Below, piece after piece: positions 1-44,845 of a stretch of 64,000 nucleotides of DNA. Position 1 is the stretch's first letter, and every line of letters starts with the position of its first letter. Source of the stretch: Lophium mytilinum (taxonomy: Eukaryota); the NCBI GenBank assembly GCA_010093605.1, contig MU004187.1, positions 186,001 to 250,000 of the forward strand. Reading direction: 5' to 3'. The translations under genes and the position numbers were made by a program. The notes under the pieces are model-generated. The model ran no database searches and had not been told where the DNA came from. It worked only from the letters and a program-made list of their open reading frames with translations.

Positions 1-1235
1 CTAATATATTTAAGTATAGTTCTATTAAACTAGCTAAACTAATATATAACCTTAGTAAATTTAATTATCTAGATAATAAAGTCTACTTAGTAGTTACGCG
101 TATATAACCTCCGCCCGCTATTCTAGATAAGCTAGATAATTTAGAACTACGCGTTTATATAAGAAGATAACCTAAGAAATAGACTATACTAGCTAATTAA
201 CCTATAGCTAGGCTAGATAAGCTAAATAACTCTATTCTAGTTTACCGCCTATAAGGCCGCCCTAGGAAAACGCCTTAACTAGTAACTAAGCTAGATAAGC
301 TAAATAACTCTAGCCTAGCTTGCCTGTAAGAATACTTTAAGAAGAATAAAATACTACTAGTAGATAAGCTATATTATTATTATTATTAAATTCTATTATG
401 CTAGTATAGCTCCCGTTAGGGTCTATGTAGCTGTTCTATCTAGGCTAATTTATAAGGGGAAACTATTTACTACTAGATAGTATTTAGGTAAAAACCTTAT
501 TCTTTATTATATTTAGTGTTAGGCGCCCTTTTTCTTTATATTTTACTATAGGGGACATATAGTAGGTCTATAAGAACTACTATAGAATAAGCTATTAAGA
601 TGCGTCTTTCTATATCTATCTAGAAAGGTTTATTATTATCCTTCTAGGTTTAGGCTAAGTAGAATCCGGATGCGAGGCTAGTATAGAATTAGCGTAAGGG
701 CCCGCGTATAAGTAGTGCGCTTGCGGGGCCTTTATTTAAGGTAATAAGATAAAATAAATAGTGGCCGTATAGGCTATTAGAGATAGAAAGGCTGCGCAGT
801 ATATAGGTAGTATATAGTAGAGGTATATAGAAAGTATATAGTTTATAGGTAGGCTATAAGAGTAGAAGGGCTGCAAGCAGCTATATAGAGTTTATAGCTG
901 TAGTAGTATATATAAGCCTCTATAGTATAGCTAATAGCTATAGAAGGGCTAAAAGTATAGAGTATATAGTTTATAGTCTATAATTAGAAAGTATATAGCT
1001 ACTTATAGTAAGTATAAGCCCTTATAGTATAACTAACTAATAGTAGAAGAGAGGGAGCCGCGTATATATACTATTATAAAGTAGGTAGACTATTTAAAAA
1101 TAGAAGAGCTATAAGGGACGGAAAGTATATAGAAAGTATATATTATAGAGTATATAGTAGAGACCTAAAGCTAACTATCTATACTAAGTACTAGTTAAGA
1201 GGGGGCGCTAAGGCCCGCTATAGTATAGTTAGGGG

Positions 1236-1397
1236 TAATAGCAAGGCTATAGATAATAGTAAAACTATAGATAATAGTAAGACTATAGATAATAGTAAGG
1301 CTATAGGTAATAGTAAGGCTATTAGTAATAGTAAGGCTATTAGTTATAGTAAGGCTATTAGTTATAGTAAGGCTATAGATAATAGTAGGGCTATAGT
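1236..1397. repeat. 18-bp tandem array, 9 copies (consensus TAATAGTAAGGCTATAGA) in the LINE 3' region
   Basis: Counted directly. Confidence 0.9.
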
Positions 1398-4300
1398 ATT
1401 AAGCGGGAGGGCTAGGTCTACTTTCTTTCTATCTCTCTTACTATTAAGAGGTAGGGTAGTAGGTCTATTTTCTATAGAAACTACCTAGCTACTACCTTAG
1501 GTCTCTTTTTACTTTTATATATTTCCTTATACATCTAAGTCTTTACTTTTTTAAATAGTTTACCTCTACTCTTTATATACCTCTTATAGTTTATTACTAT
1601 ATAGCGTAGTAATTAGAGGCTGTGCCTGCAGGGGTAGGCTAGTATTAGATAGCCTAGCACCTATATATAGTGTAGGTATCTATTAAGCTCTATATACTCT
1701 ATTTATAGGTTTATAAGAATAGTACTTTTAACTTTTATAAGCCCTTTATATATAGTCTTCTATTATTTACTCTATTTAGTATTAAGGGCCGGCGTTAGTA
1801 GCCTACGCTATTCTATTTTATAAAAGAACTTCTATGCCTTCTTCTACCTTTCTTTATATTTACATTTAATTATAAATCGCCTTAAGCGCTTATAGGCTTT
1901 ATCTAATTTATCTTTATACCTAGTATATAACCTTATAGCCTTTACTATAAGGTTATAGAGTATATTATAGCGGCTAGGGCTATACTTTAGCCTTATAAGT
2001 AGCCTATAGTAGGTATAGATTTTCTATTATATATTACTATATACTATTTTAATATACTAGCGTGCTAGCTCTTTATATATATAGTCCGCGTAAGCTACTA
2101 TAAGTTCCTCTAGTTTTAGCTAGAGTAGTAGGTATAATATTTTATATTCTAGTACTATAGTGCTTATAGTCTTATAGGCCCCTAAGATTCTCTAGAGGTA
2201 TTAGTTCTAGGTTATTTTAAGCTACTTAATCTTTATCTTACTAAGCTGCTCTAGCATGCCTAGTATAGTGTACTAGGTAGTATATCTATATATAATAGTA
2301 GGCCGGACTACTACTAAGTATATTAGGCGTGCTTTTCTAAAGCTAGCGCCCTAGGTAGATACTATAAGCCGCGTAAGTACCTCTATCTAGGTTATAGCTT
2401 TATTCTTTATAATGCTAATATGCGGGCCCTATTTAAGCTTTAAGTCTACCTATACCCCTAGTACTCTTAGGTCTATTATAGGGCCCTCTATAAAGCCTTA
2501 TATATTAACTATAGCTCTTAGGTTAACTTCTTTATAGGCTCTTATAAAGTATATTAGGTAATATTTATCTAGTATAAATACTATACTATACTTTCTTACC
2601 TATTCTATATATCTATTATAGGCTCTCTTAATAGCCCTATAGTTTACCTCTATAGTTCTACTATATATAAGAATATTTATATTATCTATAAACCTATAGG
2701 CTATTATATTACTATCCTAAAGAGTTAGTAGTAGTATACTAGCAAAGAAGAGAAAGAGAATAGGTAATAGAGAGAAGCTCTATAGAATGCCTATAGTAAC
2801 TATAATTAGTTCTACTATATAGCTTTCTATAGAGAGCCTAGTTATACAGTCTTATAGAAAGAATTTAGTAAATCTTATTATCTACTCTAGTATACTCTAG
2901 ACCTATAGGTTATATATTATTTATTTATATAAGACTTAATTAAACGCTTCTAATATATCTAGGCTAAAAAGTAATACTATAAGCTATAGGTTTCCTTTCT
3001 ATATAGCATGGATTTATTCTATAAGAAGTTTAAGTGCTATCTATATAGAGCGTTCCGGCTATACCCCTATTTAGCTAGGTAGTAGTATACCCTTTTTCTC
3101 TACTATCTTAGAGAGCCTCTTAGCTATAATACGTTTAAATAGCTTACCTATTATTTCTAGCAGTATAATAGGCCTATAGGCTTTTACTATTATATAGAAT
3201 ACTTTCTAGGGTTTACATAGAACTACTATAATTAATTCTTTAAACGGGCGGGGGTAGTATTCTCTATATAGATACTTTATAAAGAAGCGGGCAAGTACTA
3301 GTACTAGTTGCATCTTATACTTCTTTAGAAATCTATTTATAATTCCTATAATTCTAGAGGCCTTATCTAGCGCAATTTCTATTAGTACTAAGAGTATGTC
3401 TTTTATAGTAACTTCTATAGAGGTAGTATATAGTTCTAGGTATTAAAACTCTTCTAGGTTAGATAGGTTAGCTTCTACTAGTAGTAGAAAGAACTGTTTA
3501 GTAAGTATATATGCTTTTATCTTATTATCTATATATAGGGTAGAGTTACCTAGCTAAAAGAGAGGGGGAAATTAAGAAGGGGGCCTTAATTTCTTTCTAA
3601 CTATATAGCCCTATTTAGCTAGTTTCTATACCCCTTTAAAGTTATTTATTACCTTCTCTACTATATAGCGCTATACCTTAGTACTCTCTTTCTATATAGC
3701 TCTTTTCTTGCGGTTATACTAGACCTAGTATAATATCTAGTTCTCTATAGAGTATAATAAGCACTATATTCTATACGCCCGCCTAGTCTTATATACCTCC
3801 TTTAAGTACTTCTTAGTCTAGAATAGTAATGCGTGCTATAAGGGCCGTGCTATTAGTACTATAGCGTTAATAGTAATTTTAATAAGTTAGTAGAGAATAT
3901 ATATAAAGTTATCTAGGTCTTCTTCTTTTTTATTATCTAGGGGGTTATTCTAGTTTTCTAGCTTAACTAGCTAGGCTGTAAGGTGCTTCTATACGTTCTT
4001 CTATATAATATTCTTCTATAGCCGGCGTAGGGGCTATTTAGTTACTAGTAGTAGTATAATATTAAATTCTATATATATAGGGCGGTAGTCTAAGTAATAG
4101 TTCTACTTCTCTTAAACTATATAGAATATTATATATTCTATTAGCTATTTAGATGTAAATATAAGGTTAATTATAGTCTACTATATTTCTCTTACCTATA
4201 TTTCTATGCCCTTCTCTATAGCTAGGGTTAGGCCTGCTTCTATTATAATGTAAATAAGCTTCTTAGCTTACTCTTCCGCACTAATTACCTATATTTCTCC

Positions 4301-6395
4301 CTAGAATAGGTAGTATAGATTTATATCGCCTATAAGTATATACTCTACCTTCTTATATAGTATAAGGGGTAGTATAGCTATAATTCTATATAGCTTTAGG
4401 TTATAGATATTATAAATTTAAATATCCTCTCCCCTAGCCTAGAGGGAGAGAGTAATAAGGTCTAGTAAGTAGTGCTCTATAGTCTATTAGCCTAGGTTTA
4501 GGTACTTATTAATATACGTATATATTCTAGTGTTTAGGCTTCCTCTATATAGTAGGTAGTATAATTTTATGCATAGTAAGGTATATTTCTAGGTATTCTT
4601 CTATAGTTCTTATATAGCTAGTACTAGTAGTTAGGGCTAGGCCGCCTCTACCTTCTTAAGAAACTCCCTTTAGGTCTCTTAGCTCTTATTAATGTTATAC
4701 TATATAATAGTAAGTATATTAGGTTGCTCTAATATTAGGTATCTATAGAGTCTTTAGAGTTATTTATTATAGCCTAGCTAGCCTTAGTATAGAGCTAATA
4801 GCTTACTACCTCTTCTTTCTAGGTAGACGGTACCTAAGTTACATTAAATTATAATAGTCTAGCGTTATTACTATAGGTTATTATCTAAGAGTAGTATAGT
4901 ATTTTATAGGTAGGCTATAGGGTTCTATAGAAAGGCTGCGGGCTATTATAGTAAGGCTATAGGTTATTATAGTTAGGCTACTATATTAAATAGAAAGTAT
5001 ATATTAATTAGGTAGTCTATATAGTATAGGTAGACTATAGTACTCTATTTATCTTTAGTTATTTTAGGTTCTTATGCGCGGTAAATATAGTAGATATAGG
5101 GGGGCGTTCTACTCTTCTTAAAGTACTGCCGTCTAGTGCGTTACTATTCTTAGTAGCCTTCCTCTTTCTACTTACCGCGTTAAGAGCTTATAATTCTATT
5201 ATAGATTAGAATATTACTATGCCCGGCGTGCTATTAGTATTATTATTAGGGCTATTATTAGCCCTATAGTAGGTTAGCGCTGCCCACCTCTTTATATTAG
5301 CTTTTAGTTAAGTATTTTTTCTTATAGTGCACGTTGCACTATATAATAGGTAGCTTTTCTTATAGTTAGCGCACTTTCTAATACTCTTCTCTATGCATTA
5401 TCTTATATTATAAGCTCCTATATACGCTGCGTATACTACCTTCTTCTTATAGTATCTAGCAACGTGCCTATAGCCCTAGTATTAGAAGCATTAGGTAGCT
5501 ATAAAGCCTACCTTATACTTTAAGGCCTCTAGTATATATCTATTCTATGCTAGCCCGCTATCTATAATCTTATTTACTATTACCTCCGTGCCTATAGTAA
5601 CTATAGCTAATAAGGCGCGCTATTTAGAGTTATTTCTAATAGCCTAGATTTAATTTAGGTGCTTCCACGTAATCTTATATATAGCTAGGCCTAGGTATAG
5701 TACCTTATTATCTTATATAATACTACTTTACAGCATTAGATCCTCTAGGTCTATCTCTTTAGGTACTCCATACACCTCTAGAAGGACCTTAGGTAGTTAG
5801 ATTTATACTATTTTACCTAGAACCTTTATCTATTCCTTCTTCTTTAATAGGGCTTTCTTAGCAGTTACGTCTAGTATGTAGGCCTTTACGTCTCTACTCT
5901 AGAGCTTTCTAATGCTATAGATCTTTATTATATTAGGCTCTTCTACTACTTAGAGCTTATAGGTAATAGTTGCGTTTAAGTTCTTATTTATTACGGCGTG
6001 TTTCTTCTTATTCTTAATATATATAGTAATTTTATAGGTAGTCTATATTATATACTCTCTATTTTCTATAGTCTTACTATTTCTTTCTACCGCCGCTACT
6101 ACTATATAGGTTATTTCTTATATAGATAGCGCCTATACGCCCTTCTATATTTTCTCTATTATTTTTATTATCTTTCTCTATAGCGTTTATTATAGGTCCT
6201 CTATAGTACCTAAGAGGCTAGCTAGTATGCGCCCGGCGAAGTTCTAGAGGTACTTAAGGGCGTTATTTATCTTAGAGTTAGAGAATATAGGCTTATTCTA
6301 TAGGGAGTTCTATATACTATAGGCTTCTTTAATAAGCGCTTAGATATTAGCGTAGATATTCTACTTAGTCTTTAGTTAGTAGGTTTAGTTTTAGA

Positions 6396-6416
6396 ATTAT
6401 TATTAGTATTATTAGT

Positions 6417-6447
<31 letters not shown>
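6396..6447. repeat. (ATT/AGT)n microsatellite near the LINE 5' end
   Basis: Read directly. Confidence 0.85.
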
Positions 6448-6449
<2 letters not shown>

Positions 6450-6620
6450 ACTGCTATATAATAGGGGTTATAATACATAATTCTATTATAACGCCGCTAG
6501 CACGGCTTATAGAGCTCTAATACTGCGTGTAAACATTTATATAGCCTTAAGTAGCCCCTAGAGGCCCTCCTTAGGTTATATTTCTAAGGTGCTGTAAATT
6601 TAATTACATTATATTTTTTT

Positions 6621-8860
6621 TAGATAAGCTATATAATTCTACTACTAAGAAGCTGCCTATAGATAATAAGCTAAATAATTTATCTAAAGTAACTATTTTT
6701 ACTAGTAATTAGATTCTTTAATAGGTTTAAAAGTACTTAAAAGGTAACTCTATAGTTTAAGCTATTAAATATACTAAATACTAAAATTAGCGCTAATTAC
6801 CCGTATAATTCTATTAAGACTATTATTTATAAATAGAGCTAGGTAACTATAAAGTTATTAATAACCTTCTCTATATCTATAAGTAGCTCTATATTCTAGA
6901 TATTAAATAACTATATACTTATATTATCTAATCTATATATAAATCTAAGCCTACTAGATATACTAGAATAACTTTAATCTATATATAACTCTATAAGTAC
7001 TATTACTAGCCCTAAATAATATTCTCTATAGACTAGTATATTAGTGCCTATCTAGCTTATAAGAGATCTAAATACTCTTAAGAGGGTAAATAAGAACTAC
7101 TCTATCCCCTATCTATTCTAGACTAATATTAGTATTATATCTCTATTAACTTTATTACTCCCTTACTAATCTATAAGTAATAGGGATATAAGCTTAAATA
7201 TATTATAGTTATTATTAATTAGTTCTTAAAAAAGAGAAAGTTTATAGCTATAAACTCTATAGAGGCTAAAGATATTATATAGGCATTTATTAAATAGATC
7301 TAGTAAGAAGAAGAATACCTATATTTTATTATTTCTAACCGCGGACCTTAATTTATATTATATTTCTAGAAATAACTATATACTTAGATAGAAATAAAGC
7401 TAAAGCTCTCTACTACCTTCTACTTTAAAATAGATAGATAAACGGAAATTACTAATATAGCTCTTAAATAGTACTTACGCGCGTATATTAATTATAAGTA
7501 GAATAACTAGGCTAACCTCTTACCTATTACTAAGTTTAAAGCTAATTTAGATAAGATAACTATAGGTATTTCCCCCTTTATTACTATAAAAGAATATAAT
7601 CTATATTTTAGTCTTAAGCTAGCTAATAACTCTATAGCTAAAGAACTATAGAAGGCCCTTAGAGAGAAGGCTAATACGCTCGCTAAGTAACTAAATAACC
7701 TCCGTCTCTTTCTCTATAATAAATTAATTTAGGTATAAGCTAGATAGAAAGAGTTTACTAACTATAAATAGAAACTAGCTATAGAGTTTAAAGTTAGTAA
7801 CTAAGTTATATTAGACACGCGCAATATTAAGACTTAGCGCCTAAATAAGTTACTAGACTATAAATAACTTAGTCTATTTAAAATTACTAAGGTTATTAAT
7901 AACGCCGCTTACTAATTAGCCCTTCTATATACTATAAAGGGGGTATTTAATATCTTCTATCTATAGCTACTCTATTATATTACTTATAAGCCGCTAGAAG
8001 AATAAGTCTAGAAGAAACTAGAACTAGTTAAAATTAATAAAGAAGGCTATAAGTAATAGAATATTAATAAAATAGTTAACTTATATATTAATAATGCTAT
8101 ACTTAACCTAGCTATAAACTAAAAGGGCCTACTTTAGTATAAGATCCTCTATACTAGTTACCCTAAGTAGAATACTAATTCTTAATAAGAATTTTATACT
8201 AGTATTACTAACTACTATAATATTATTATAGACTATTACTATATCTACCTAAAAGTAAAAGAACTCTATAAGTTCTTCTAGAAGCCTAAGTATTAAAAGC
8301 TGCTACTTACCCTAATTATAATAATACTCTATAGATAACGCGTTCCCTATCTTACTAACTTAACTAGTACTAACTAGTTAAGCTATTACTAATTTATATA
8401 AAATTAGATAATACTATACTATATAGACTATATAAATAAAGCTTAGTAATATATATAAGATTAACTATATTACTAACCTTATATTTAAGGCCTAGCGCGC
8501 ACCTATTATAACTCTTCTATTTATATAATTGCAAGATAATTTATTAAAAGAATTAACTAAAGAAGGACTATCTTATAGTAAGTATATATACTAAAATAGA
8601 AAGGCTATATATATATAGCTTTCTTTTAGAGGGGGGTAGTATTATAGCTATAATATAACCCTTATTATAATATACTTCTATTATAAGTAATAGTATTATA
8701 TAGCCTCTATTATGTATTACTATTATATAACTTTACTTAGCGCCAGCCTTACCTACCTCTTAGCTAGCGCTCCGCGCCCTACTCTCTCTTCTTATAGCTA
8801 CTTTATTATATACTTAATACTATCTAGTTTTCTATTATAATTCTATATTATACTATAATA
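6621..8860 (+). mobile_element. RIP-degraded Ty3/gypsy (chromovirus) 3' part: integrase, probable chromodomain, PPT, 3' LTR; bases 1-374 are probably its upstream continuation
   Basis: Plus-strand IIN*FLKK (VVDRFSK), ISNRGP*FI (ISDRGPQFV, ~7331), KLSTTFYFKIDR*TE (KLSTAFHP-TDGQTE, ~7402-7447), SLFKI (GPFKI, ~7871), VFNIFYL*LL (VF-VFHPWLL, ~7943). Purine tract at ~8627-8639. Confidence 0.88.
8640..8860 (+). repeat. 3' LTR of the gypsy element
   Basis: Immediately follows the PPT AGAGGGGGGTAG. Begins TATTATAG and ends CTATAATA, read as RIP-mutated TG...CA inverted termini. Confidence 0.75.
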
Positions 8861-9565
8861 TTTTTAGCCTAGCCTTTATACTCTTACTACTTAGTACTTA
8901 TATTATAGCTTATACTTATAAATAGCTTTAATATCTACTAAATAGCCTAAACCTATTAAGATATTACCTACTAAATTAGCCTTAAAGTATTAAAAGATTA
9001 AATTAAATAGATAGTAAATTAAATAGATAGTAAATTAAATAAATAGTAAATTAAATAGATAGTAAATTAAATAGATAGTAAATAGATAAAGAATTAATAG
9101 AGATATATACCTAATTCTAGTAGTATAATATAGCTAGGCCTCTAGAATATAGCCTAGTAATATAGGTATAGATTATTATATTATATCTAGCTACTATAGG
9201 TAGTAGATATATAGGTAGCTACTTATTTAAGTAGCCGGCCTATACTATATTACCGGGCTATATTCTAGAGGCCTAGCCGCGTTATACTACTAGAATTAGG
9301 TATATATTTCTATTAATTCTTTATCTATTTACTATCTATTTAATTTACTATCTATTTAATTTACTATCTATTTAATTTACTATCTATTTAATTTACTATC
9401 TATTTAATTTACTATCTATTTAATTTAATCTTTTAATACTTTAAGGCTAATTTAATAGGTAATATCTTAATAGATTTAGGCTACTTAGTAGATATTAAAG
9501 CTATTTATAAGTATAAGCTATAATATAAGTACTAAGTAGTAAGAGTATAAAGGCTAGACTAAAGA
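8861..9565. repeat. Fold-back inverted repeat: arms 8861-9165 and 9245-9565, each with a 16-bp tandem array (5 vs 6 copies)
   Basis: Arms are reverse complements differing by transitions and one 16-bp unit (AAATTAAATAGATAGT). Confidence 0.92.
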
Positions 9566-10161
9566 AAAGAAATACTATCTTACTAACCTAATATTAATAA
9601 GAGTATAAAGGTAGATAGTAAGAGTATAAAGGGCTAAACTAAAGAAAGATATAATAGAGAATAATTACTATCTATACTAGTAAGACTAGTAGCTAAATAC
9701 TACTTTAAGACTAGTAGTATTTCTTTTACTACTTACTATTTATATTTAGTATCTTTTTACTACTTACTATTTATATACTTTTTTCTACTATAATAAGGGC
9801 TTTTCTTTTAAAGAGGGGGATAGTAGAGTAACTAAGTAGTTACTAGTAAATAGTACTTAAAAGAATCTAAAAGTAGAGTATTATTATTTAGAGCTATTAT
9901 AGATAGTATTAAAGGGCTATTTAGTCTTATTATAAATAGTAAGTATTCTTTTAGAGAGGGGGATAGGTATAGGCTAGCTACTTAGATAAGCAGTCGCCTA
10001 TATACCTGCCGCCCGTAGTAGCTAGATATAATACAACAACCTACACCCGCATCACCGGGCTACAGCGCCCCGCCATCTTGGCAACTCCAGCCGACCCACT
10101 TAAACTTTTGCTTTCGCTGCGGCTTCAAACTACAACACGCATATCAACCAATACCTCGACA

Positions 10162-17423: not shown

Positions 17424-19558
17424 ATGGCTCCTAAGAGAAAGGCCAGAAGCGACGAAGACGAAAATCCAATTGAGCACTACTACCAGAGCCTGCCTGCTTC
17501 GAAGTCTCGGAAGACAAAAGGCGAGACGTCGGCATCGTCCCGTGCTCTACATGAGTTATCGCCCAAGGTCTATAACTCCCGGCTTGCTATTCAACAGGCT
17601 AGCTGCTACGGCAACAAAATCTTAGACCTGGAAGAGCCACCTACAACGTCTAGCAACCAGCTCGGCGTCACAGCTCGGGAACCGCCCAGGCTAAATGCAA
17701 ATGTCTCTACTCTCGAGGTTCAACGGACGGAGGAAGCTCATTACGGTCAAAGCGAAGCAAACTTCATTCAGCACGTTATAGCCAACCCTGGTCGGGATAC
17801 AGCGTCCACCGCATCCAGCACAACACCGACCACGGAATCTCTCATAGCTACTCATTCACGCGGTGTTGCATCGGACACTGGCCATTCCGCACTCGATCCA
17901 CAGGCTATTGGTGCGGAATCCCAGATTCGAGCACGAGTACCCGGAGATCTCCCAGCCTTTGGCTCCCACTTCGCGGATAGTGGCGCGGCAGACCAATGGC
18001 GAGCGGCCAATGTCGTGAGAATACCATCTATCGACCCTGACGAGGATCCAACGCTCGAATCAGTTCATGCAGAATCACTAAAGTGGGTTGAGCTGATGTA
18101 CAAAATGATAACCAATCGAGAAAATATCGGAGACAACATCAAGAGCGACACGTACAAGAAGTATGAACGCCTTGCGCGCATATCATCTGAGAATACAGAG
18201 GCAGCCTGCCATTACGTTATGGTAAGTCTCCCTTCCACCAACATAGGAAAGAGCACGAGGAGCTAACGATTCAATAGCGGGAAGTATTTACTGTTTGTCA
18301 CTTAGGGTTCTTGCTGGGGGATCCAAACATGGACATGGCTAAGCCACGGAAAGGCAAGAAAGACGGATGGTCTCCGACGGAGAATCCTCACGAGTTTGAA
18401 AAGATTGCAGACGATGAACTCCAATGCTTTATGCGGATGATAAAGATCTGTTACGCGCTGAAGGTATGTAGGCACATGCTGCTACTCTTGCACATTGTCT
18501 TCTTTGCATGCTAACTTTGTGTTCAGCACGAGAAGACCATTTGCGCTGAGGTCCTGAGTGGAGGATTTGGCGACAGACTCGTAAGGCAATTTGTCAACGC
18601 ACCTATCGAATGGCGTCGTGTACGTTCTTCCTTCCCATAACTGATATCACAAAGTGGCATACTTTGCTAATCACTGATGTAGAGGAAAGGCAACAACCGT
18701 CATGGCAACGACGGAAAAGCAGAGAAATCAGTTCAACGAGCAGAAAAGCGCATAGAACAAAAGCGCGCTGCAGAACAAGCAAAGAAGCTTGCAGCTGCCT
18801 CAGGTCAGGGGGCCACTAATGTTGACACCGATGTCACTTCTACGAAGAAGAATGCCAGCGATGCGAGCAAGGCACGTGCATCGAAGAAGCTTGAGCCGCC
18901 AATGAACAGCATAGTCAAAGAGGCATTCGCTCTTGGGATCACGATTCCGGACCTATACGTCGGACTTCTGATTGATGAAGAGGAGGAGGAAGAGGAGCAG
19001 CATGTGCCACTACAATCTCCAGCGACTGCTTCAACTCAGCCTCTATGGTGGCTCGGCGAAGCGATTGAGTACAGTTTCGTTGACAACGTTGGCCCATCCG
19101 ACACTCACCAACCTGAACCTACTCCAGAGGCTTCGAACCAACAACCGGCCGCACCAAAGAAGCGGGCGAGGAGATCCGCAGTGGTGTCAGACCCTCCTAA
19201 GCGGAGGGCAAAAGAATCTAAGACTCCAGGGCAAGAACCTGCTGCTCCAGACACACTTCTGGAGATGCCAGCCCAGCAAGCTCTCCCCAGCTCTACCGAG
19301 AAGTATACTGTTCCTTACAGCTATCAGACCCAGTGGCAGATGGGATCTCCACGAAGCCTCCAGTCGGCGGAAGTATCTTTCGATCACCAGCTACTTCCTA
19401 TCGCGGGCTACCAGAACCAGTTACAGCCTGGGCCATATGACCAATTCCCACCTGCTAGAAACTATCAAGTTCAACCGCCATTCTCTCCCGCAGAACCCAC
19501 AGAGCAACAGCTCCTGGATGCTCACGGTCAAGCACAGGTCGAGGAATGCGATCCTTAG
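17424..19558 (+). CDS. Uncharacterised family protein, paralog A (4 exons)
   Basis: Removing GT-AG introns 18222-18277, 18464-18526 and 18620-18682 gives a continuous frame to TAG at 19558. Homologous to paralogs B and C. Confidence 0.85.
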
Positions 19559-25062: not shown

Positions 25063-27549
25063 CTATATGATCGTGAGCGTAGAATCTTCAACGCCCCCAA
25101 AGAAACCAAGAACGTCAGTCGAACATCCAATTCGCTCAAAAGATTCTGACTCTTCACGCGGTCGCCACAGCAAAAGGGCAAAGAGTCCGACGAATCTTAC
25201 GTCCGCAACCCTGAACAAGAACAGAGGACGCGTGCGCTTGTCCAATCCATCCACAACCCACTCAACATCCATCGAAAGAGTGGCGAGAGATGACGTCTCT
25301 GTCTTTACATGGTTGCCTTGGGGGCCTGCACTCCATACCTGCACCAACCCGCCGCTCACTACTAAGCTGGCAGATTCCAGCTGGCCAAACTCGTCGCCCA
25401 ATCTGTGCGGTGTCACTATGCAGCGAATAATCTGGCAGAGCATCTTCGTATGCTCGAATTCGTAATAAGTTACTTGCCCATCGATGCTCGCCCAAGACCA
25501 AGTCGGTGCCCGCCACAGCGGCAGTTGCTGTCGTTGAGTTTCAGACGCGTGACGTTGCCACAGCATGTCCTCAACCAGCGAATGTTCCCACAGGCCCGCG
25601 TAGTACTTTCCAAGGTACTCGAATTGTTTTGCCAGCCCTGTGAGCGCGATAAGACGGTCGCTTGAAAATGTGAAATCCAGACCAGAATACTCTTCCACGA
25701 TCTTGTGCCACCGGGTAATGAGTAAGTCTCGGGCAAAGCGCGTGTCAATGGAAGCCCTGAGGCCTGACATGGACTCTGCTTTTGACATATCAACTCGCGC
25801 AAAGCGCGTGTCAATGGAAGCCTTGAGGCCTGACATGGACTCTGCTTTTGACATATCAGCTCGCGCTACGCGTTGTGCGAACGCGTGATTTTTTTTAGGA
25901 TGTGGTACTCGGGAAATATTGGGTTCAAAGCCGCACTCACAGCGCAACATTGTCGCGCATTCCCATATGAGTTCGTCTGGCCCGAAATGCAAAATTCGTG
26001 GAGATAGGAGCCGCTCTTGGTATACCCAGCCTCGTCTTAATAGCGGCGAGTGCGGCACTGGATTTTCTACTAAGCTGGAGGGGACTAGAGGAACTAGGAG
26101 GTTGTGCAAAGGCCGTAACTGGGGTCTAAGGCGCACCTCCCACTTGTCAACACCGGCATTGCGTGGCCGAAGCGTGAGACTTTGGGCGACGGGAGTGGGT
26201 TTCCAAAACAGCCCATCGGCGTCACTTCTGAGCACTGGGTATGTATTCTGGCCTTCTGCGCCGGATGCGAACAGCGTGAGCGTAGATCTAGCGAATATAG
26301 ACCACATTTCAACAGACTCCTTTTGCCAGTCTTCCTCATCATCCTGGACAATGCAGATGGAGTCTATCCAGATATAGCGAATCCCCAGTCTGCGGGTGAA
26401 GACTATGGCATCTTGAAATCTTTGGGTAAGATCGGACCAGGGGATATTCTGCAGGTACTCCTGGAGTGTTGACTGAGTTGTTCGCGTCATCTCCGAGACT
26501 GGAAGCCATCGGTGGCTTAAGCAGACATAAGGTGCAGCTTCGCCACTGGTCACAAGTAAGCGGACTTTTGGCAGTTGGTCCTTTGGGTTATCGAGACTAA
26601 TGTCGGCGCTGGCTACACCAACGTCAAGTACGCGAGTGGGCAATGGGGATCCATGTGACTCATGGGTTCCAGAGCAATCGGGGTGATATTCTTGGCACTC
26701 GCGCAAACGTGCTTGGGCCCAGAGTAGTGATTCTGTGGAGGAAGTATCTCCCGAAACCATTGTGGTTGGATGATGCATACTAGGCCATGGCATCGGCATT
26801 GCTATAAAAGTCTTTAGCAAGTCAGGCAGACATATAGGGGATATATGAGGTAGAATGGTGTTACAGACATGAAAGCAACGCAAAGCGTTTCGCTGATTTA
26901 CGGAACTGACTCGATAATGGAATCGCAATTTCAATAGCTTACCTCCTACACTGTCCAAATGCCATTGTGATGAGGCATACATACCATCCCCTAGATGACC
27001 TGTAAATTCCAAACGTACACCCCTGTGCTGACCTTTAGTGATCCGTACTTCCGTAACCTCTAAGACTATCCCGGATGCGGCTATTTCATCTACCGGTTTT
27101 CCTGGCGAATCGTCTCTATAGAACCCTCTCAAAACCTCTATCTGGACTACATTCCTCATGGCGAGGATGCCGTCGACGAACAGACAACATGCTTGGCAAG
27201 ACCCGCGGTCCGACGAGAGTGTGAGGTCGTGGAAAGAAACTTCTTTGAATCGGTCGTATGGACCCTCATATAAGAGGATATCTTGGCATATTTCACATGA
27301 CAGCTTCGAATTTGCCTGATCTAATACAGAAGGCTTGCTGCCATCTTCCAAAAGACTGCTGTTACGGGCAGACGTTGATCGGTTTTTGGGTCGCCTCAGC
27401 CATTCCTTTATCTTTTTGAAGCCGCGAGGGGCTACTTGCTTGGCCTCCTCATGGTCAGCTGCTCGTCGCAAGGGAGTCTCTATGATAGATTCAGGATCAG
27501 AGATATCCTCAGTAGAGAATGTCCCAATGCTTGTCCAGTAACGCGGCAT
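25063..27549 (-). CDS. HET-domain (heterokaryon incompatibility-like) protein
   Basis: LPTRVLDV, YVCLSHRW, FQDAI, LGIRYIWIDSICIVQDD..DW, RGWVYQERLLSPR, YYAGLW and APTWSWAS motifs. Start uncertain (27549 or 27759). Probable intron 26802-26942. Confidence 0.92.
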   Translation of the reverse strand: MPRYWTSIGTFSTEDISDPESIIETPLRRAADHEEAKQVAPRGFKKIKEWLRRPKNRSTSARNSSLLEDGSKPSVLDQANSKLSCEICQDILLYEGPYDRFKEVSFHDLTLSSDRGSCQACCLFVDGILAMRNVVQIEVLRGFYRDDSPGKPVDEIAASGIVLEVTEVRITKGQHRGVRLEFTGHLGDGMYASSQWHLDSVGGKLLKLRFHYRVSSVNQRNALRCFHVCNTILPHISPICLPDLLKTFIAMPMPWPSMHHPTTMVSGDTSSTESLLWAQARLRECQEYHPDCSGTHESHGSPLPTRVLDVGVASADISLDNPKDQLPKVRLLVTSGEAAPYVCLSHRWLPVSEMTRTTQSTLQEYLQNIPWSDLTQRFQDAIVFTRRLGIRYIWIDSICIVQDDEEDWQKESVEMWSIFARSTLTLFASGAEGQNTYPVLRSDADGLFWKPTPVAQSLTLRPRNAGVDKWEVRLRPQLRPLHNLLVPLVPSSLVENPVPHSPLLRRGWVYQERLLSPRILHFGPDELIWECATMLRCECGFEPNISRVPHPKKNHAFAQRVARADMSKAESMSGLKASIDTRFARVDMSKAESMSGLRASIDTRFARDLLITRWHKIVEEYSGLDFTFSSDRLIALTGLAKQFEYLGKYYAGLWEHSLVEDMLWQRHASETQRQQLPLWRAPTWSWASIDGQVTYYEFEHTKMLCQIIRCIVTPHRLGDEFGQLESASLVVSGGLVQVWSAGPQGNHVKTETSSLATLSMDVEWVVDGLDKRTRPLFLFRVADVRFVGLFALLLWRPREESESFERIGCSTDVLGFFGGVEDSTLTII
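25733..25866. repeat. 66-bp tandem duplication inside the HET gene
   Basis: Two copies (starting 25733 and 25799) differing at 2 transitions. Confidence 0.95.
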
Positions 27550-27853
27550 CGTAACATTCAGGAACGTGATAAGGTTGTGAAAGGTCGATTTGCGATTCAA
27601 ATTACAAGTCCATCTTAATAACTCTAATGAGAAATGGGATGGAAGTTTAATGCGGGGAATATAAGCGCCTACATACCCAGGGGCGGACAGTGAACTGAGC
27701 TTTGACCACGTGACCCCGTTGTTGGGGCGTTTGTTATGATGCACTTTTCGTAGCGACATCCCAGCACCTTTTCCCTTACCACCATATCAACCCACCGAAC
27801 TCTCCACACGCCGTACCACCACTATCGCGCGCCCCTCACTGCAATTGATCCTC

Positions 27854-38441: not shown

Positions 38442-40580
38442 CTAGAGCTCCTCTTCCATATCATATAGATTTGAGGATCCAAAATCACCCAGATCATTGA
38501 AGATGGAGTAGTCTGGAGCCGCCGTAGGTTCCCTGAGAAACTCATTCCAGAAATCCGGATTTACCCCTGCGGAAGTTTCAGGAAGGTAGGCGTTATCCTG
38601 GATCTCATCGGAGGGAGCTACGCTGTTCTCGGGAAACCAAATGTAGTCAACACACCCAGGAGGAGTATCCCATCCAGCGGCTTCGCTAGTATTGGCCACT
38701 GGGTCAACGGGATGAGCAATGACTGGAGAATATGGTTGGTTTAGGCCTAATGCTGGCTGAATGTTGGTTGTCTGAATGCTCGCTGGCTGAATGTTGGTTG
38801 CTTGAATGCTCGCCGGCTGAATATTTGCGAGATAAGTGAGGGGAGACACAGCTGGAGCAGCCGATTGGTGCTGGGCCTTCCCATGTGGAATGTTACGAGT
38901 TGCCGACGGTGAATCAATGTCGATAGGCGAGTCCCGACGAAGGATTGGTGCATTGCCTATGCTCACATCGTTCTCGAAGGGTGTAGATGATTGAGGATGC
39001 AACTTCTTCGCCCTCGGTTTCGGCGGCGGCTCTGAGGCCTTCTGCGTCTGCGGAGCAAGAATGGTAGGTGTTGCAAGGTTTTCCTCAGCCTGTGCGTTCA
39101 TTCCAACTGGCTGGGCTGCGATTGTTGGTATGATTGTTGCCACCGAGTTTCCGAAATGGTCCACATTGTGGGTTGATGTGACTATCGAAGCTGCACCAGA
39201 GCCAAGTCCATTTCGTGGGACCAGTTGCAGCGTCGGATTGTTTGTATTGGGATGAACCAGTGGTGCTGCAGTTTGCAGGGGAGGTAACATTGTAGACTGT
39301 GCCTGTGTGGGATGTCCTATGTATGCTGCAAATGAGCGAATCCCAAGAGCTGCAGCTTCTCCATACTCTTGAGTCATATCAGGCTCAACATAAGTTTGAC
39401 GCGGTTTATCCTCCTTGGGCGCCTTGCGATTGTTGTTGTTTTTTCGATTGCTTTCTTTGCGGCGGCGCCATTCGATTGGTGTATTGACAAACTGCTTGAT
39501 CACTTTATCGCCGGTGTCTCCCTTAAGAACATCCTCGCAGACCATCTTTTCCTTCTTCAGCGCGTAGTATATTTACAAGACTCGGTCTGCACAGGATAAT
39601 TCTCGGTCCGGCTTACTGCCTAATCTGGAGGTCCCGCACGGTTTGTCCAATGTCAGGTCAAGGGTCTTGTCAGCGAGAAAGAATCCCTCTTTACAGAGAG
39701 TCAACATCTCTTCGACAAGCTCGTGACACGCAAGCTGAAGTTCCTCTACAGTAAAGTAAGGTTTCTGGACGAAATGTTCGCGGCCCTTGCTGGTGGGATT
39801 GTCCTTAACATCCGATTGATCAGTCATACCCTGGTAGAAGAGGTTGACGATCTTCAATCTATCTGCTTCTATCTCAACGATTGTCGGATCATCTGTACAA
39901 GGTATCCACGGTAGTCTGCAAATATTATCTCGACGCCATCTCCGAGCCTCGTCGAGATCCGCGAAACGGTTGGCAAAAGGAGGGAAAACGCTTGCCGCAG
40001 TTTTAGAAGCTAGGGTAGTTAGAGAGATTGGTGCGTGCTGGATAGCTGGGTCGGTGTGAGCGGCAGGGTCTGTCCGGGAACTTGCGGTGGTTTGGAACGT
40101 TCCGGTCGGTATGGCTCCCTGGACCTCCGTCGAGTCGAGTCCATGATGCATAGACGCAACCATATTTGAGTTTGTGGCGGTATGGGACGAGGCTGCTGTA
40201 TTCAGCATTTGACTCGGTCCAAGGCGCTGGGTGTGCAGATAGCCAGGATCCATCTGCTCATGGTAAACCTGAGACTGATCTTTCAATTCTGTTCGGTACC
40301 CTGTCCGTCCTTCCTCGTGCTCGTCTACTTCATTCTCGTTCGTAGAATGAGCCGATGAGAATCTGGTGTTATATAGCTGTGAGATGTTTTTTTCGATCGG
40401 CTCCGCCTGGGTAGCGTGCGCCCTGATTGAGGTCGGAATGTTGATCGATATTGCTTGGAGGGCTCTCCCTTGGGACGGTATTTCCATCCTCGTACCCTGG
40501 TCACTAAGTCGGGACTTTTTGCGAACTTGCTCGCTGGGAAGCAATTCCTCGACCTCTCCAAAGCTGCGCTTAGGCGCCAT
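38442..40580 (-). pseudogene. Uncharacterised family protein, paralog B: no coding introns, in-frame TAA at 39573-39575
   Basis: ORFs 39573-40580 and 38442-39545 are in one frame, reading ADRVL*IYYALKKEKMVC, which aligns with A (MRMIKICYALK|HEKTIC). Confidence 0.8.
38749..38823. repeat. 30-bp coding tandem repeat (NIQPASIQAT) x2.5 in paralog B
   Basis: Read directly. Confidence 0.85.
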
Positions 40581-42859
40581 GGCGTCGGTCTGCTAACATC
40601 TAACATCTCAGGTTAGAATATGATGAGGAGGTGGTGTGAATATAATTGGGGTTAAGACAAAAGGGTATATCGGGTCCAAAAGAGAACAGGAAGCTCTGAG
40701 TGGTGTAGGGAAAGAGTGAAGATGTGCCCGAGCTTCGAAACAAGTGGAGCAACTTACCAAGAGGGACTGATCTGTTTTAGGCGCTGGAATCTATGAGAGC
40801 GAGCGTAACGAGTCTTGAAGAGATTGGTTGTGGTGTTGGTGGAAGAGCTTGGTGTGAAGAGTTTGGTGGGGGGGTTGGTGGGAGGAGGTTGATGGGAAGG
40901 TTACGCGTAGGAGTTGGTGATCCTTTTATAGTTCAAGTGCAGGCCGCATAAATATCATCTATTAGTGAATCGAAGTAGGCTGAAGGGCACTGGCGTGCGC
41001 GACTGATGCTTCTCTGAGCATTCACGTCCTCGATTCTTCGGGATATATAAAGAGCTTGATTCCATTGTATTCCACAGTATCACTCTATGCTGTCATCCAC
41101 TTACCAACTTCAACGAGTCAGAGAAACTGGCTCGGTCAATTTGCTAGGATCAACCAACTAATGGAAGCTGGTTTCAAGTTGGGTCGATCAACTTAAAAAC
41201 ATCTCACAGCTAATGGAAATCGGTTTGCGTCTTTGTTTCCAAGTATTTGAGGATAAGTATGAGAGTTCAATGTGCCAAATGATGTTGATGATCATCATTT
41301 GGAAAAGACGAGCAGCACCAACTAAGAGAGATGAAGAAGAGAATCTTCGAACATGGCGATGAAGTATCCTGAGCTTCGAAACAATCAATACCGCAAACTT
41401 CGATAGATAATCAGCTAGATCCTATTGAATGGAATCTTAATGCATTGCATCACCCTCTGACCCTCTTGAAGTGATTTTTTCCCTTGTGTAGTTGGAGCAT
41501 TAGGCGGCGTTGCTGGATCGAGGGAATCGCAGCCGAGAGGCCGCCGAAAGAGTGAAGGAGATCGATGAGAAAGCAAGCTCAAAGGCCAGGCTGAGCGCCT
41601 CTAAAGGAAATAAAGCTGACTCTTCTATAGATTTGCTGGTTGGTTGCTGTTTGACTGCTGCATCTAGACGTATAGCTTCGAGGAAGATAAGAAATTTCGC
41701 GTCTCCCCTTTGCCTGTTTGTCCTCCAACGAGGTAGCTTCTCTAACTAGATTCAACTGAAATCAAGCCATTGCCTGAAGGAACTATCAAGATCTTGAAGC
41801 ATTAAGATAGCGATAAATTCTATGAGTATCAGCACGTCGTCAATGAAACCAATTCGATGCCCAACTGCTGATTCCTTAAGATGTTAACACCTCTTTTCAG
41901 CGGCCACTTTCAATCCCGCTGAAAAGATCTGCTGAAAGTGATACTTGAAGCCCACAATGTTTGATCAGGTGACGAAGAGTTTGCACGACAGCTGACAAGT
42001 CTATGTGGGGACAAGCTGACGCGCTCTCTGCTTGCATCTCTCAAACGCATCTCATCTCAAGTTTCGGCCCCTATGGAGCTGCTAAAGTGTAGCTTTCCGA
42101 CGCGTATCTTTGCGCCTTGTATCCGTATTCTAGGGCGAAGTGCCGCCTTTGACGCGTCGCAAGATGCTTGCAATACTAGAGGAGGGTCTCGCAATACCTT
42201 GGCGCTGTCCTTCCTGACTGGGCTATGAGAGAAGCAAATGAAGTGTTTAAAAGTCAGCGTGTTTTAGATGGAGAGTGCTGAGAGAGTGAGCAAGTGCTTA
42301 GTGCGGAGATGTTGAGCACGGACCAGATAGCTCCCCTCTGCCTTCAGGGGCCTCGACATCAACACGATCTTTACAGCCATGACGTAGTAGTGCTCCGCCA
42401 TAACCTGAGAATTAAAGTATTAACATGAGGGTTTTTCCTAGTTCTAATCTAAGCTAAGAGGATTTCCGGGAGGTCTCCGTATCTGAGTATACAATATAGA
42501 CATAGACCAGGAGACATCGCCATGTCCTTTTCCAGGGTTTTTAAACAACAATTAAAGAATCACACGCATCGGCACACGTTATTGTAAGCAAAAGAGAGAT
42601 GCAACACGCATGCAACAAAAATCAACAAGAGCCATCCAAGCACCGCAGCTGTAAACTTGCCCAGCTTCTCCAAAGTCTACAACTCTTCGAAAAGGGAATC
42701 GATGTCCTCTTGGCTCATCACCCTAAATTCCAAAGCACCTTGGGACTGTCCGTCAGAACCCGAGAGCACCTCAGTTTCGAGGATCTCTGACGATGGCTCG
42801 ACAGTCAAAGAAGTTTCATGGGTTGAAATCGACTCTGCGTCTCCCAGCCAGTCATTTTG

Positions 42860-44845
42860 CTAGAATTGGGCATTCCCTGAGAGCCCAGCGTTGTCCCAAA
42901 TTTGGAGTGGGGTGAATTGCGTCCCATAAATCGAAGACGGATCGAAAGACGCCTGTTCCGTTTGAGGTAGTAGTTCAGGGAGTGCATTATATCCAGTCGT
43001 GCCGTCCGAAACTGGGGTTAAATTATCTAGCATTGGTCGCGTGGAAGGGCTCAGAGTGAAGTCCGAATCTAGCTCTTCAGCGAATTGGCCCATCCTTGGA
43101 AGGATCATTTCTGGTGTGGTCGTGCCCGAGGTAGTCGGAACCTCGTTGAAGACGGTTTGAACAGATCGGGCTACCGGTTGTCGGACACCTAGAATGTGAC
43201 TGCTCGATGAAGCGATGGGACTCGGGGACATTGGTGGCAACATGGTTTGCTCCGCACGCTTCCTAGGTTGCTTCGGTTGCGTGGTTGGCCTTCTAGCCTT
43301 GCCCTTCTTTGGATGCATAGATGGGGTTACGCCTGCGGCTGATGGTGGGGCATTTGCTGGGCCCAGCACCGGTTGCGCACCAAAGCTTGGAACAATGTGC
43401 GATGTGTTCATCTGGGGGCTGGGGATTTCAGTATCTGCATCGCCCCCGGGGGTCGCCACTTCGGGCGTGGCCAATGAAGCATCTGGGTGTCCTGCGGAAG
43501 CGTCTATTTCCACACGAGGGCGATATGCATCGGGAACTTCAACCCCCAGGACTAGAAGGTTCCGGTAGGCTAGAGGTATATATATTCCTAGTGCAGCCGC
43601 TGCGAGAGCCACATCGTTAAGCGGAGGCTCCGCTTTTGGTGGCGAATGCGGTATGACGGACGGGTTTGGGAGTACCACTTCCGTCTTGCCCGCGTTCCTT
43701 TGCCTGCCCTTCTCACCCCTTCGCCAGTTTTGGAGGCGGAACTTCTCTTTGTCCTATTGTAGATGTCAACTCATTTTCTTTAAACATGAACGAGGAGATT
43801 TCCGGAACTGACTCACCCGGCGACGAGCTATCGGAGCATTTACGAGTCTCTTCACATTGATATCTCCGCAAACAGCGATCAGGACCTCATCACAGAGGGT
43901 TTTCTCGTGCTAAACACAATATGGGTTAGTATGGAAGAAATAGAAAGACCGTGGCTGCACGTACCTTGAGAGCGTAACAGATTTTCAGTAAGCGCATAAA
44001 GCAAGTGAGTTCGTTGTCTTTGAACTTCTTGACATCGCCAATTAGGCTCTCGTGTAGGCGACAACCTGTCTCGCACACCTCCAATGCTTCAAACTGTGTC
44101 CGCATTAGCTCTGACTCTTTAAGTCAGGGATTCAGAGAAGACCCACTAAGATTTCAATGGACGCGCCCTCAATGTCTTTTGTTGAATACTGCTGCATGAT
44201 GACCATGCGCTTGTATCCCTCGCTGGTGACGGTATCTCTCACAGCAGACAGATCGGTGATATGATTGTAGATAAGTCTGACCCATGCTTCCATTTGGCCG
44301 CGGGCCTGATTGATAGTTACATCCGTTTCAGGTTTCAGGTATGGCTGCTGTCTCCTACTGTCCGCGCGCCAATCGAGACCTAGGCCAAAATCTTTGAAGT
44401 GACCTTGAAAGCCCGGATAGCCTGCTGGTGTTGAGGTTGGGATGGTGGCTACTGTCTCCTCTGGTTCATTTTCTACAACGTAGGGCTGGTGTTGGCGTGC
44501 TCCAAGAAGCTGAGCTTCATCTTGGATCGTCTGCTGGTGTGAGCCGGTCCAACCTCCCTCTACAGTTGCTGTCGTCGGCACTGTAGACGCGAAGCTGGAG
44601 AGTAAATATTCGCTGGCATTTGAGTATCTAGTGTCGGGGGATATAGAACGCTGTGGAGCGCCGTGTGGTCCTTCATGAGTATTGACACGCGGCCCTCCTG
44701 AACTATTCACTGGTAGATCCTGCAAAGCTCGAAAGGAGTTTTGATTGCTGCCATTCATCTGTTGTGGCGCGGACAGAAGTATCTTTTTCCGTTGTGGCTC
44801 TGTGCTCGTCTCGTTCTCGTTACCATTCAGCTTTCGCTTCAGCAT
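42860..44845 (-). CDS. Uncharacterised family protein, paralog C (4 exons)
   Basis: Removing introns 44094-44146, 43910-43964 and 43754-43816 gives a continuous frame containing ELTCFMRLLKICYALK|HEKTLCDEVL..LVNAPI. Confidence 0.85.

Follow-up and report, generated by a model that had tools for sequence, protein, structure and literature searches.

Probable exact loss of three neighbouring introns from one of three paralogues in a 64-kb stretch of Lophium mytilinum DNA

Three paralogues of one gene family, A, B, and C, lie within a 64,000-nucleotide (nt) stretch of Lophium mytilinum contig MU004187.1 (assembly GCA_010093605.1, positions 186,001 to 250,000, forward strand), which is called the window here and whose own numbering is used throughout. 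The locus raises the question of why B is free of the coding introns that interrupt A and C, and whether this state arose by loss in B or by gain in the others. The three sequences are about 30-40% identical to each other, and A and C were located in the window by tblastn with B as query. The original prediction, made from the letters of the stretch, held that B lacked all three coding introns, appeared to keep an intron in its 5' untranslated region (5'-UTR), and arose by retroposition or cDNA-mediated intron loss. The reading favored here, considered probable on balance, is that the introns are ancestral, that B lost all three exactly by recombination with cDNA in place, and that a TAA stop codon in B is either recent or a base error.

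Paralogue B occupies 38442..40580 on the reverse strand as a single 712-codon frame, from ATG at 40580 to TAG at 38442, with one in-frame stop and no frameshift, 2.3 kb downstream of C in tandem and on the same strand. At the family sites, the frame reads ACHELVEEML, YALKKEKMVC, and EWRRRKES. The residues at the three intron nodes of the family hidden Markov model (HMM) are adjacent in B, and there is no indel in the alignment of A, B, and C, which confirms that B lacks the three coding introns kept by the other two. The corresponding junctions fall at 39714|39713 (ACHELV|EEML, nodes 98|99), 39555|39554 (YALK|KEK, nodes 145|146), and 39462|39461 (EWRR|RKE, nodes 173|174) of the reverse strand, and the removal is exact, with no codon gained or lost at any site. 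The family HMM matched B from node 3 to node 194 in one frame with 186-187 bits (B 187 bits, A 170, and C 154), and B retains every one of the 13 residues that are invariant in a 30-row alignment of the family. Clean read-through, as predicted, holds at the three intron sites but not for the gene as a whole, in which an in-frame TAA at codon 336 (39575-39573, reverse strand), five codons before YALK, had been overlooked. Apart from this codon, B is intact and not decayed. An MAPKR N-terminus common to A and B supports 40580 as the start of B, so that the upstream intron candidate falls in the UTR.

Paralogue A (17424..19558, forward strand) encodes 650 amino acids (aa) in four exons (17424-18221, 18278-18463, 18527-18619, and 18683-19558), and its introns follow ACHYVM (18222-18277, donor GTAAGT), YALK (18464-18526, donor GTATGT), and EWRR (18620-18682, donor GTACGT). 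Paralogue C (42860..44845, reverse strand) encodes 604 aa, likewise in four exons (44845-44147, 44093-43965, 43909-43817, and 43753-42860), with introns after ASIEIL (44146-44094, donor GTGGGT), YALK (43964-43910, donor GTACGT), and ARRR (43816-43754, donor GTGAGT). The spliced model of C is identical to the public protein P0024 across all 604 residues. The six introns are all phase 0, GT-AG, and 53-63 nt long, with G at donor position +5 in every case and a CTAAC/CTAAT-type branch motif in five. Both the MAFFT alignment and the HMM place the introns of A and C at the same codon positions (nodes 98|99, 145|146, and 173|174), and the interruption of both genes at three sites was thus borne out.

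The state of these positions outside the window was taken from metagenome contigs, which were scanned once and yielded 31 related loci (L001-L031). In 21 of these (L001-L021), the core lies in one uninterrupted frame, and second tandem copies of this kind are present on L005, L017, and L018. Uninterrupted copies total 24 (18 distinct sequences), and every one is without all three introns. The whole coding sequence (CDS) is a single open reading frame (ORF) in these Pleosporales genes, for example, at 2312-4171 of L002, with 620 aa, the length of P0045. At nodes 98|99, 145|146, and 173|174, the near-identical contigs L022 and L023 are interrupted by phase-0 introns, which measure 56, 52, and 55 nt. 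None of the 31 loci was found to carry just one or two of these introns. Intron-less outgroups, which the original prediction took as the sign of intron gain in A and C, are therefore the state of 21 of the 31 loci, but L022 and L023 bear all three introns.

A maximum-likelihood tree, unrooted, was computed with 49 rows out of the 115 distinct ones for the core; redundant members of two large clades were left out, as were nine rows with long branches (P0068, P0069, P0120, P0081, P0064, P0065, P0088, P0096, and P0106). The window paralogues were arranged as (B,((A,P0003),(C,P0008))) with support 98/88, and P0005 and P0006 were sister to this group in a 7-row clade with support 99/93. A 27-row Pleosporales-type clade was separate (100/98), as was a far clade of 14 rows (100/98), whose copies L005b and L017b are intron-less. 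L022 and L023 were placed with P0010 at the base of the 27-row clade, apart from A and C. Since B branches before the split of A and C, the introns of these two alone cannot polarize the change. The approximately unbiased (AU) test rejected a tree in which A, C, L022, and L023 form one clade against B and 14 intron-less copies (log-likelihood 43.1 lower, p-AU 0.0065). Under uniform independent insertion, the coincidence of three out of three positions and phases among about 594 slots (198 nodes by 3 phases) has a probability of about 3e-8, and the exon flanks of the introns in A, C, and L022/L023 share no common proto-splice motif. As the same three introns occur in L022/L023 and a single intron-bearing clade is rejected, the introns are ancestral and B lost them, which agrees with the polarity originally proposed. 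On these sequence comparisons, it is very probable that the introns were already present before the two clades diverged and that all three were lost in B and, separately, in the main Pleosporales clade.

Several further features of the metagenome loci were observed. An apparent extra intron (GTAATA...CTAAC...TAG) was seen by eye at about 70-135 of L023, in the N-terminal coding region, and has no alignable counterpart in A, B, or C. Family genes stand in tandem pairs on one strand at 3478-4059 and 6815-7369 of L005 and at 3211-3786 and 6231-6839 of L017, and likewise on L018; in each pair, a typical copy is followed by a far-clade copy, an arrangement that recalls the tandem of C and B. The eight loci L024-L031 are copies, 88-99% identical, of one repeat with scrambled pieces (about 90% identical) of a family gene of the L009 type, in which the C-terminal half of the core precedes the N-terminal half. 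They may represent part of a gene that was picked up by a repeated element in some Pleosporales genome.

Upstream of B, the TATAAAAG box, a TATA box, lies at 40923..40930 on the reverse strand and is followed by a C/A-rich leader, also rich in pyrimidines, with no ATG before the first donor. The splice motifs stand as originally described, with GTAAGT at 40757, CTAAC within 40617-40612, and AG acceptors at 40600, 40593, and 40590. From these motifs, a candidate 5'-UTR intron of 158 nt can be drawn at 40757..40600 (reverse strand), with donor GTAAGT, branch site TCTAAC, and the first YAG, a TAG ending at 40600, 13 nt past the branch A; the alternative acceptors, TAG at 40593 and CAG at 40590, would extend the length range to 158-168 nt. 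A single consensus donor and a single CTAAC lie in the interval from TATA box to ATG, and donor, branch point, and acceptor follow in consensus order and spacing downstream of the TATA box at 40930. When the 350-nt region upstream of B was shuffled 20000 times by mononucleotide, 25 of the shuffles showed the strict pattern (GTAAGT, CTAAC, and YAG within 80 nt of the ATG). Two upstream ATGs, at 40606 and 40599, fall inside the candidate or on its edge, the first opening a 93-codon frame that overlaps the start of B, and splicing would remove or disrupt both. With motifs of this quality, the balance tips slightly toward the candidate being spliced. Each of the three paralogues has a loose candidate, as do 1 of 16 Pleosporales loci and 19% of shuffled upstream regions; a UTR intron common to A, B, and C was rejected, the evidence for A and C being too weak at this rate of chance candidates.

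How B came to lose its introns can be pictured as follows. An ancestral gene would have carried the three phase-0 core introns, which were kept by A, C, and one lineage of the sister clade. A cDNA copied from the resident gene's own spliced mRNA would have recombined with the B locus, and one such step could have erased the three neighboring introns, leaving the promoter, the tandem slot beside C, and possibly the 5'-UTR intron untouched. The same three introns would have been lost independently in the main Pleosporales clade, and the single in-frame TAA in the conserved core of an otherwise intact B would be recent or a base error. Loss of adjacent introns through cDNA is the standard reverse transcriptase (RT) model (PMC3652778 and PMC2395259).

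In comparison to RT-mediated intron loss of the Fink model (Cryptococcus, Schizosaccharomyces, and Aspergillus), the removal in B is likewise exact, with neighboring introns absent together, and B has kept its original position, its promoter, and a candidate 5'-most intron. Unlike in that model, the losses fall at 41-52% of the CDS and not at its 3' end, the retained 5' intron is only a candidate, and the source of RT is a match below the cut-off. This match, to RVT_1 (E 1.6e-5, 25.1 bits, under the Pfam cut-off of 29.6), marks a decayed reverse transcriptase remnant on the reverse strand at 2588..3184, approximate coordinates derived from the residue positions of the match. It lies in an AT-rich block (1-10000; GC content 24-32%) with no ORF of at least 120 aa inside, where a weak hint of a Tf2-type integrase SH3 domain was also seen (E 0.005, about 7800-7970, forward strand). 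The block looks like retroelements, of the long interspersed nuclear element (LINE) or long terminal repeat type, decayed by repeat-induced point mutation (RIP). The earlier statement that LINE machinery exists in this genome went too far, as these two remnants are all that was found for it.

A number of points weigh against ancestral introns removed from B through cDNA. The polarity argument depends on how improbable it is that the same three sites were hit twice, since parsimony on presence and absence needs only two changes (two parallel gains) compared with three under ancestral presence. Outside the clade of A and C, it is anchored by a single lineage, the near-identical contigs L022 and L023, and P0003, P0008, P0005, P0006, P0004, and P0010 are known as proteins only, without intron states. 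The group examined in the AU test was defined after the tree had been seen. The end branch of B is long (0.82 changes per column), which gives time for separate losses, and the RVT_1 match in the window stays under its Pfam cut-off. The UTR-intron candidates of A and C are weak, that of A containing its own TATA box, and the TAA codon is seen in this assembly alone.

Stepwise removal of the three introns from B by exact genomic deletions, through microhomology or end-joining repair and without an RNA intermediate, would make use of that same long branch, which allows three separate events, and would suit a window in which no intact reverse transcriptase was seen. Deletion and double-strand-break models are recognized alternatives (PMC3652778 and PMC3698931). 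Each deletion would, however, have had to be exact to the base at all three sites without a codon change, and the all-or-none pattern argues in the same direction, as all 24 uninterrupted copies reported for the main Pleosporales clade are without all three introns and no intermediate locus occurs among the 31. Stepwise deletion is therefore regarded as unlikely.

Retroposition fares worse. If B were a retrogene, a reverse-transcribed family mRNA would have been inserted beside C and would have acquired a promoter and a 5'-UTR intron afresh. Such an origin would account for the absence of any coding intron, decayed retroelement sequence is present in the same window, and a poly(A) tail and target-site duplications (TSDs) would have eroded at 30-40% protein identity. 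Both of these marks, proposed as a check, were looked for around B and neither was found: runs of A in the 400 nt that follow the stop do not exceed 4, and there is no credible direct-repeat pair, only pairs at chance level with 71-87% identity. B further stands in tandem and in the same orientation with C at 2.3 kb, family tandems recur on L005, L017, and L018, which fits DNA duplication, and B has a TATA box and C/A-rich leader as in A. A processed retrogene or retropseudogene resembles B in lacking coding introns and, in many retropseudogenes, in carrying a premature stop, but differs in that B has no poly(A), TSD, or unlinked site and does have its own TATA box, leader, and tandem paralogue. 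A retrogene origin is very doubtful, and of the two routes named in the original prediction, the cDNA-mediated one remains plausible, whereas retroposition is not supported, with poly(A) and TSD missing and B in tandem with C. Given the exact loss, the absence of intermediates, the tandem position, the TATA box and leader, and the missing poly(A) and TSD, recombination of cDNA in place fits better than retroposition.

Independent gain, in which B keeps an ancestral intron-less state and the introns entered separately in the ancestor of A and C and in the lineage of L022/L023, is the most economical reading of the tree, with 2 changes. It is also in line with the branching of B before the split of A and C, and with the intron-less state of the far clade (L005b and L017b) and of most near-clade copies. 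Dothideomycetes are known for recent intron gain via introner-like elements, which adds to its appeal. It would nevertheless require each of two clades to have received three insertions, six in all, at matching codon boundaries and phases and at exon flanks without a shared proto-splice motif, and a single origin of the intron-bearing genes is rejected (p-AU 0.0065). Independent gain is accordingly held to be highly improbable, and loss from B remains the reading carried forward here.

Turning to the stop codon, A has AAG and C has AAA at the position of the TAA, and the family consensus is Asn in the motif RLxNII. As assembled, B cannot encode a full-length protein. Because B is otherwise intact, the TAA would be recent, a base error, or tolerated; the likeliest status of B is that of a truncated allele or a pseudogene of very recent origin, unless the TAA is a base error. 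RIP was rejected as the cause, as the change from AAR to TAA needs an A-to-T transversion and RIP produces C:G to T:A transitions. The public model P0002, the NCBI entry "hypothetical protein BU16DRAFT_607212 [Lophium mytilinum]", is 100% identical to B over the matched stretches and has 647 aa. It avoids the TAA by omitting 39749-39555 (reverse strand), 195 nt or 65 codons of the conserved core that include the TAA, begin with GTAGAG, and end with AAG, the 3' end being the old intron-2 junction. A B orthologue above roughly 55% identity was not found, and in a word-based search of region 195-400, P0002 stood alone among 440 candidates.

The skip is most likely an annotation work-around, judging from its sequence, and the old intron-2 junction, usable as an acceptor, is probably the reason why the predictor chose it; gene predictors routinely put in such introns to dodge stops. 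That the segment is instead spliced as a new intron, so that intronization bypasses the TAA and yields the 647-aa protein, would agree with the public model and with a segment that has a length divisible by three, starts with GT, ends with AG, and closes at the old intron-2 junction, but it is scarcely credible, as the donor GTAGAG has A at +5 compared to G in all six introns of A and C, the last 42 nt hold no CTRAY branch motif, the segment is three times the family intron length, and 65 conserved core codons with invariant residues would be removed. If it were true, the old intron-2 junction would have been reused as the acceptor of a new intron that removes a nonsense codon. The combined scenario, with intronization rescuing a nonsense allele after the triple loss and a 5'-UTR intron persisting in A, B, and C through gains and losses of the coding introns, is just as much a long shot. 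The public model P0002 is flagged here, as it probably conceals a nonsense codon behind an artificial intron.

Taken as loss, B is a further example of a well-known process, ordinary intron loss, in an unannotated family, and the case raises no new question on intron evolution. It offers a polarized instance of exact and apparently concerted loss of three neighboring introns, twice independently in one small family of Dothideomycetes, and one 64-kb window contains paralogues of both kinds, with and without the introns. It also illustrates how an incomplete outgroup sample can mislead, as most outgroups are intron-less and plain parsimony favors gain.

The family itself was characterized by searches with B and with its core. 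A phmmer search with B against 1.84 billion representatives returned 119 proteins at E ≤ 1e-3, sharing a region of about residues 190-395 of B, and a profile search returned 137 at E ≤ 1e-5, all named ones being "hypothetical" proteins in Pleosporales genera (e.g., Alternaria, Pyrenophora, Bipolaris, Didymella, and Parastagonospora). By these matches, the family appears restricted to Dothideomycetes and is uncharacterized. No Pfam family was matched by the pieces of A and B or by the core sequences, and a TFIIS_M match was absent at E ≤ 10 in all 15 core sequences and in the pieces of A and B. A PDB profile search returned nothing related, only one chance row (E 1.1), and ESM Atlas scores of at most 0.89 to phage terminase clusters, with low recognition, were treated as noise. 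The frame of C remains open for 61 codons past its TAG (42677-42862, reverse strand), ending in ...SLFEEL and recalling the ...DMEEEL of B, and that of A for 35 codons past its TAG. These frames were rejected as truncated coding sequence, as the best E with the HMM of the family C terminus was 0.23-1, not significant, and no significant match was found among 201 family proteins either.

An AlphaFold2 model of the B core (39381-40028; 15-row alignment), about 200 residues long, is all-helical, with a predicted local distance difference test score (pLDDT) of 78.2 and a predicted template modeling score (pTM) of 0.69. Foldseek against pdb with this model returned nothing at E ≤ 0.001 (best row, E 1.3). 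Among 48161 chains compared exhaustively with VIA, the top six were all TFIIS domain II or the TLD of Bye1 or PHF3, with Z from 7.1 to 5.6, values which, according to the search tool's own note, lie within the chance range for helical bundles (Z < 8); the next unrelated row had Z 4.7. The leaders were 2dme (Z 7.1, root-mean-square deviation [rmsd] 5.1, 105 residues aligned) and 3ndq (Z 6.8, rmsd 3.4, 89 of 97 aligned). The predicted core may thus resemble TFIIS domain II and the TLDs of Bye1 and PHF3 in the helical-bundle fold of the top rows and differs from them in that the family is without a Pfam or PDB profile match. The sequences of A, B, and C contain basic, KR-rich stretches that suggest a nuclear protein, and the modeled fold hints, as a lead only, at a core like TFIIS domain II in a nuclear protein associated with RNA polymerase II. 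This is a first and tentative fold lead for the unannotated family.

With regard to the remainder of the window, no synteny beyond the family genes was found in 44 tblastx matches across the 31 metagenome loci, all of which fell within the three paralogues. The setting is that of an ordinary chromosome arm, and the neighbors include genes of the RRM, APH, arylsulfotransferase, and HET kinds, one for a peroxisomal-type ABC transporter, and others for Brix, KRR1, and syntaxin-5. A HET (heterokaryon incompatibility) domain was recognized with E 5e-25 in a 907-codon ORF at 25066-27786 on the reverse strand, which is placed between A and the pair of B and C.

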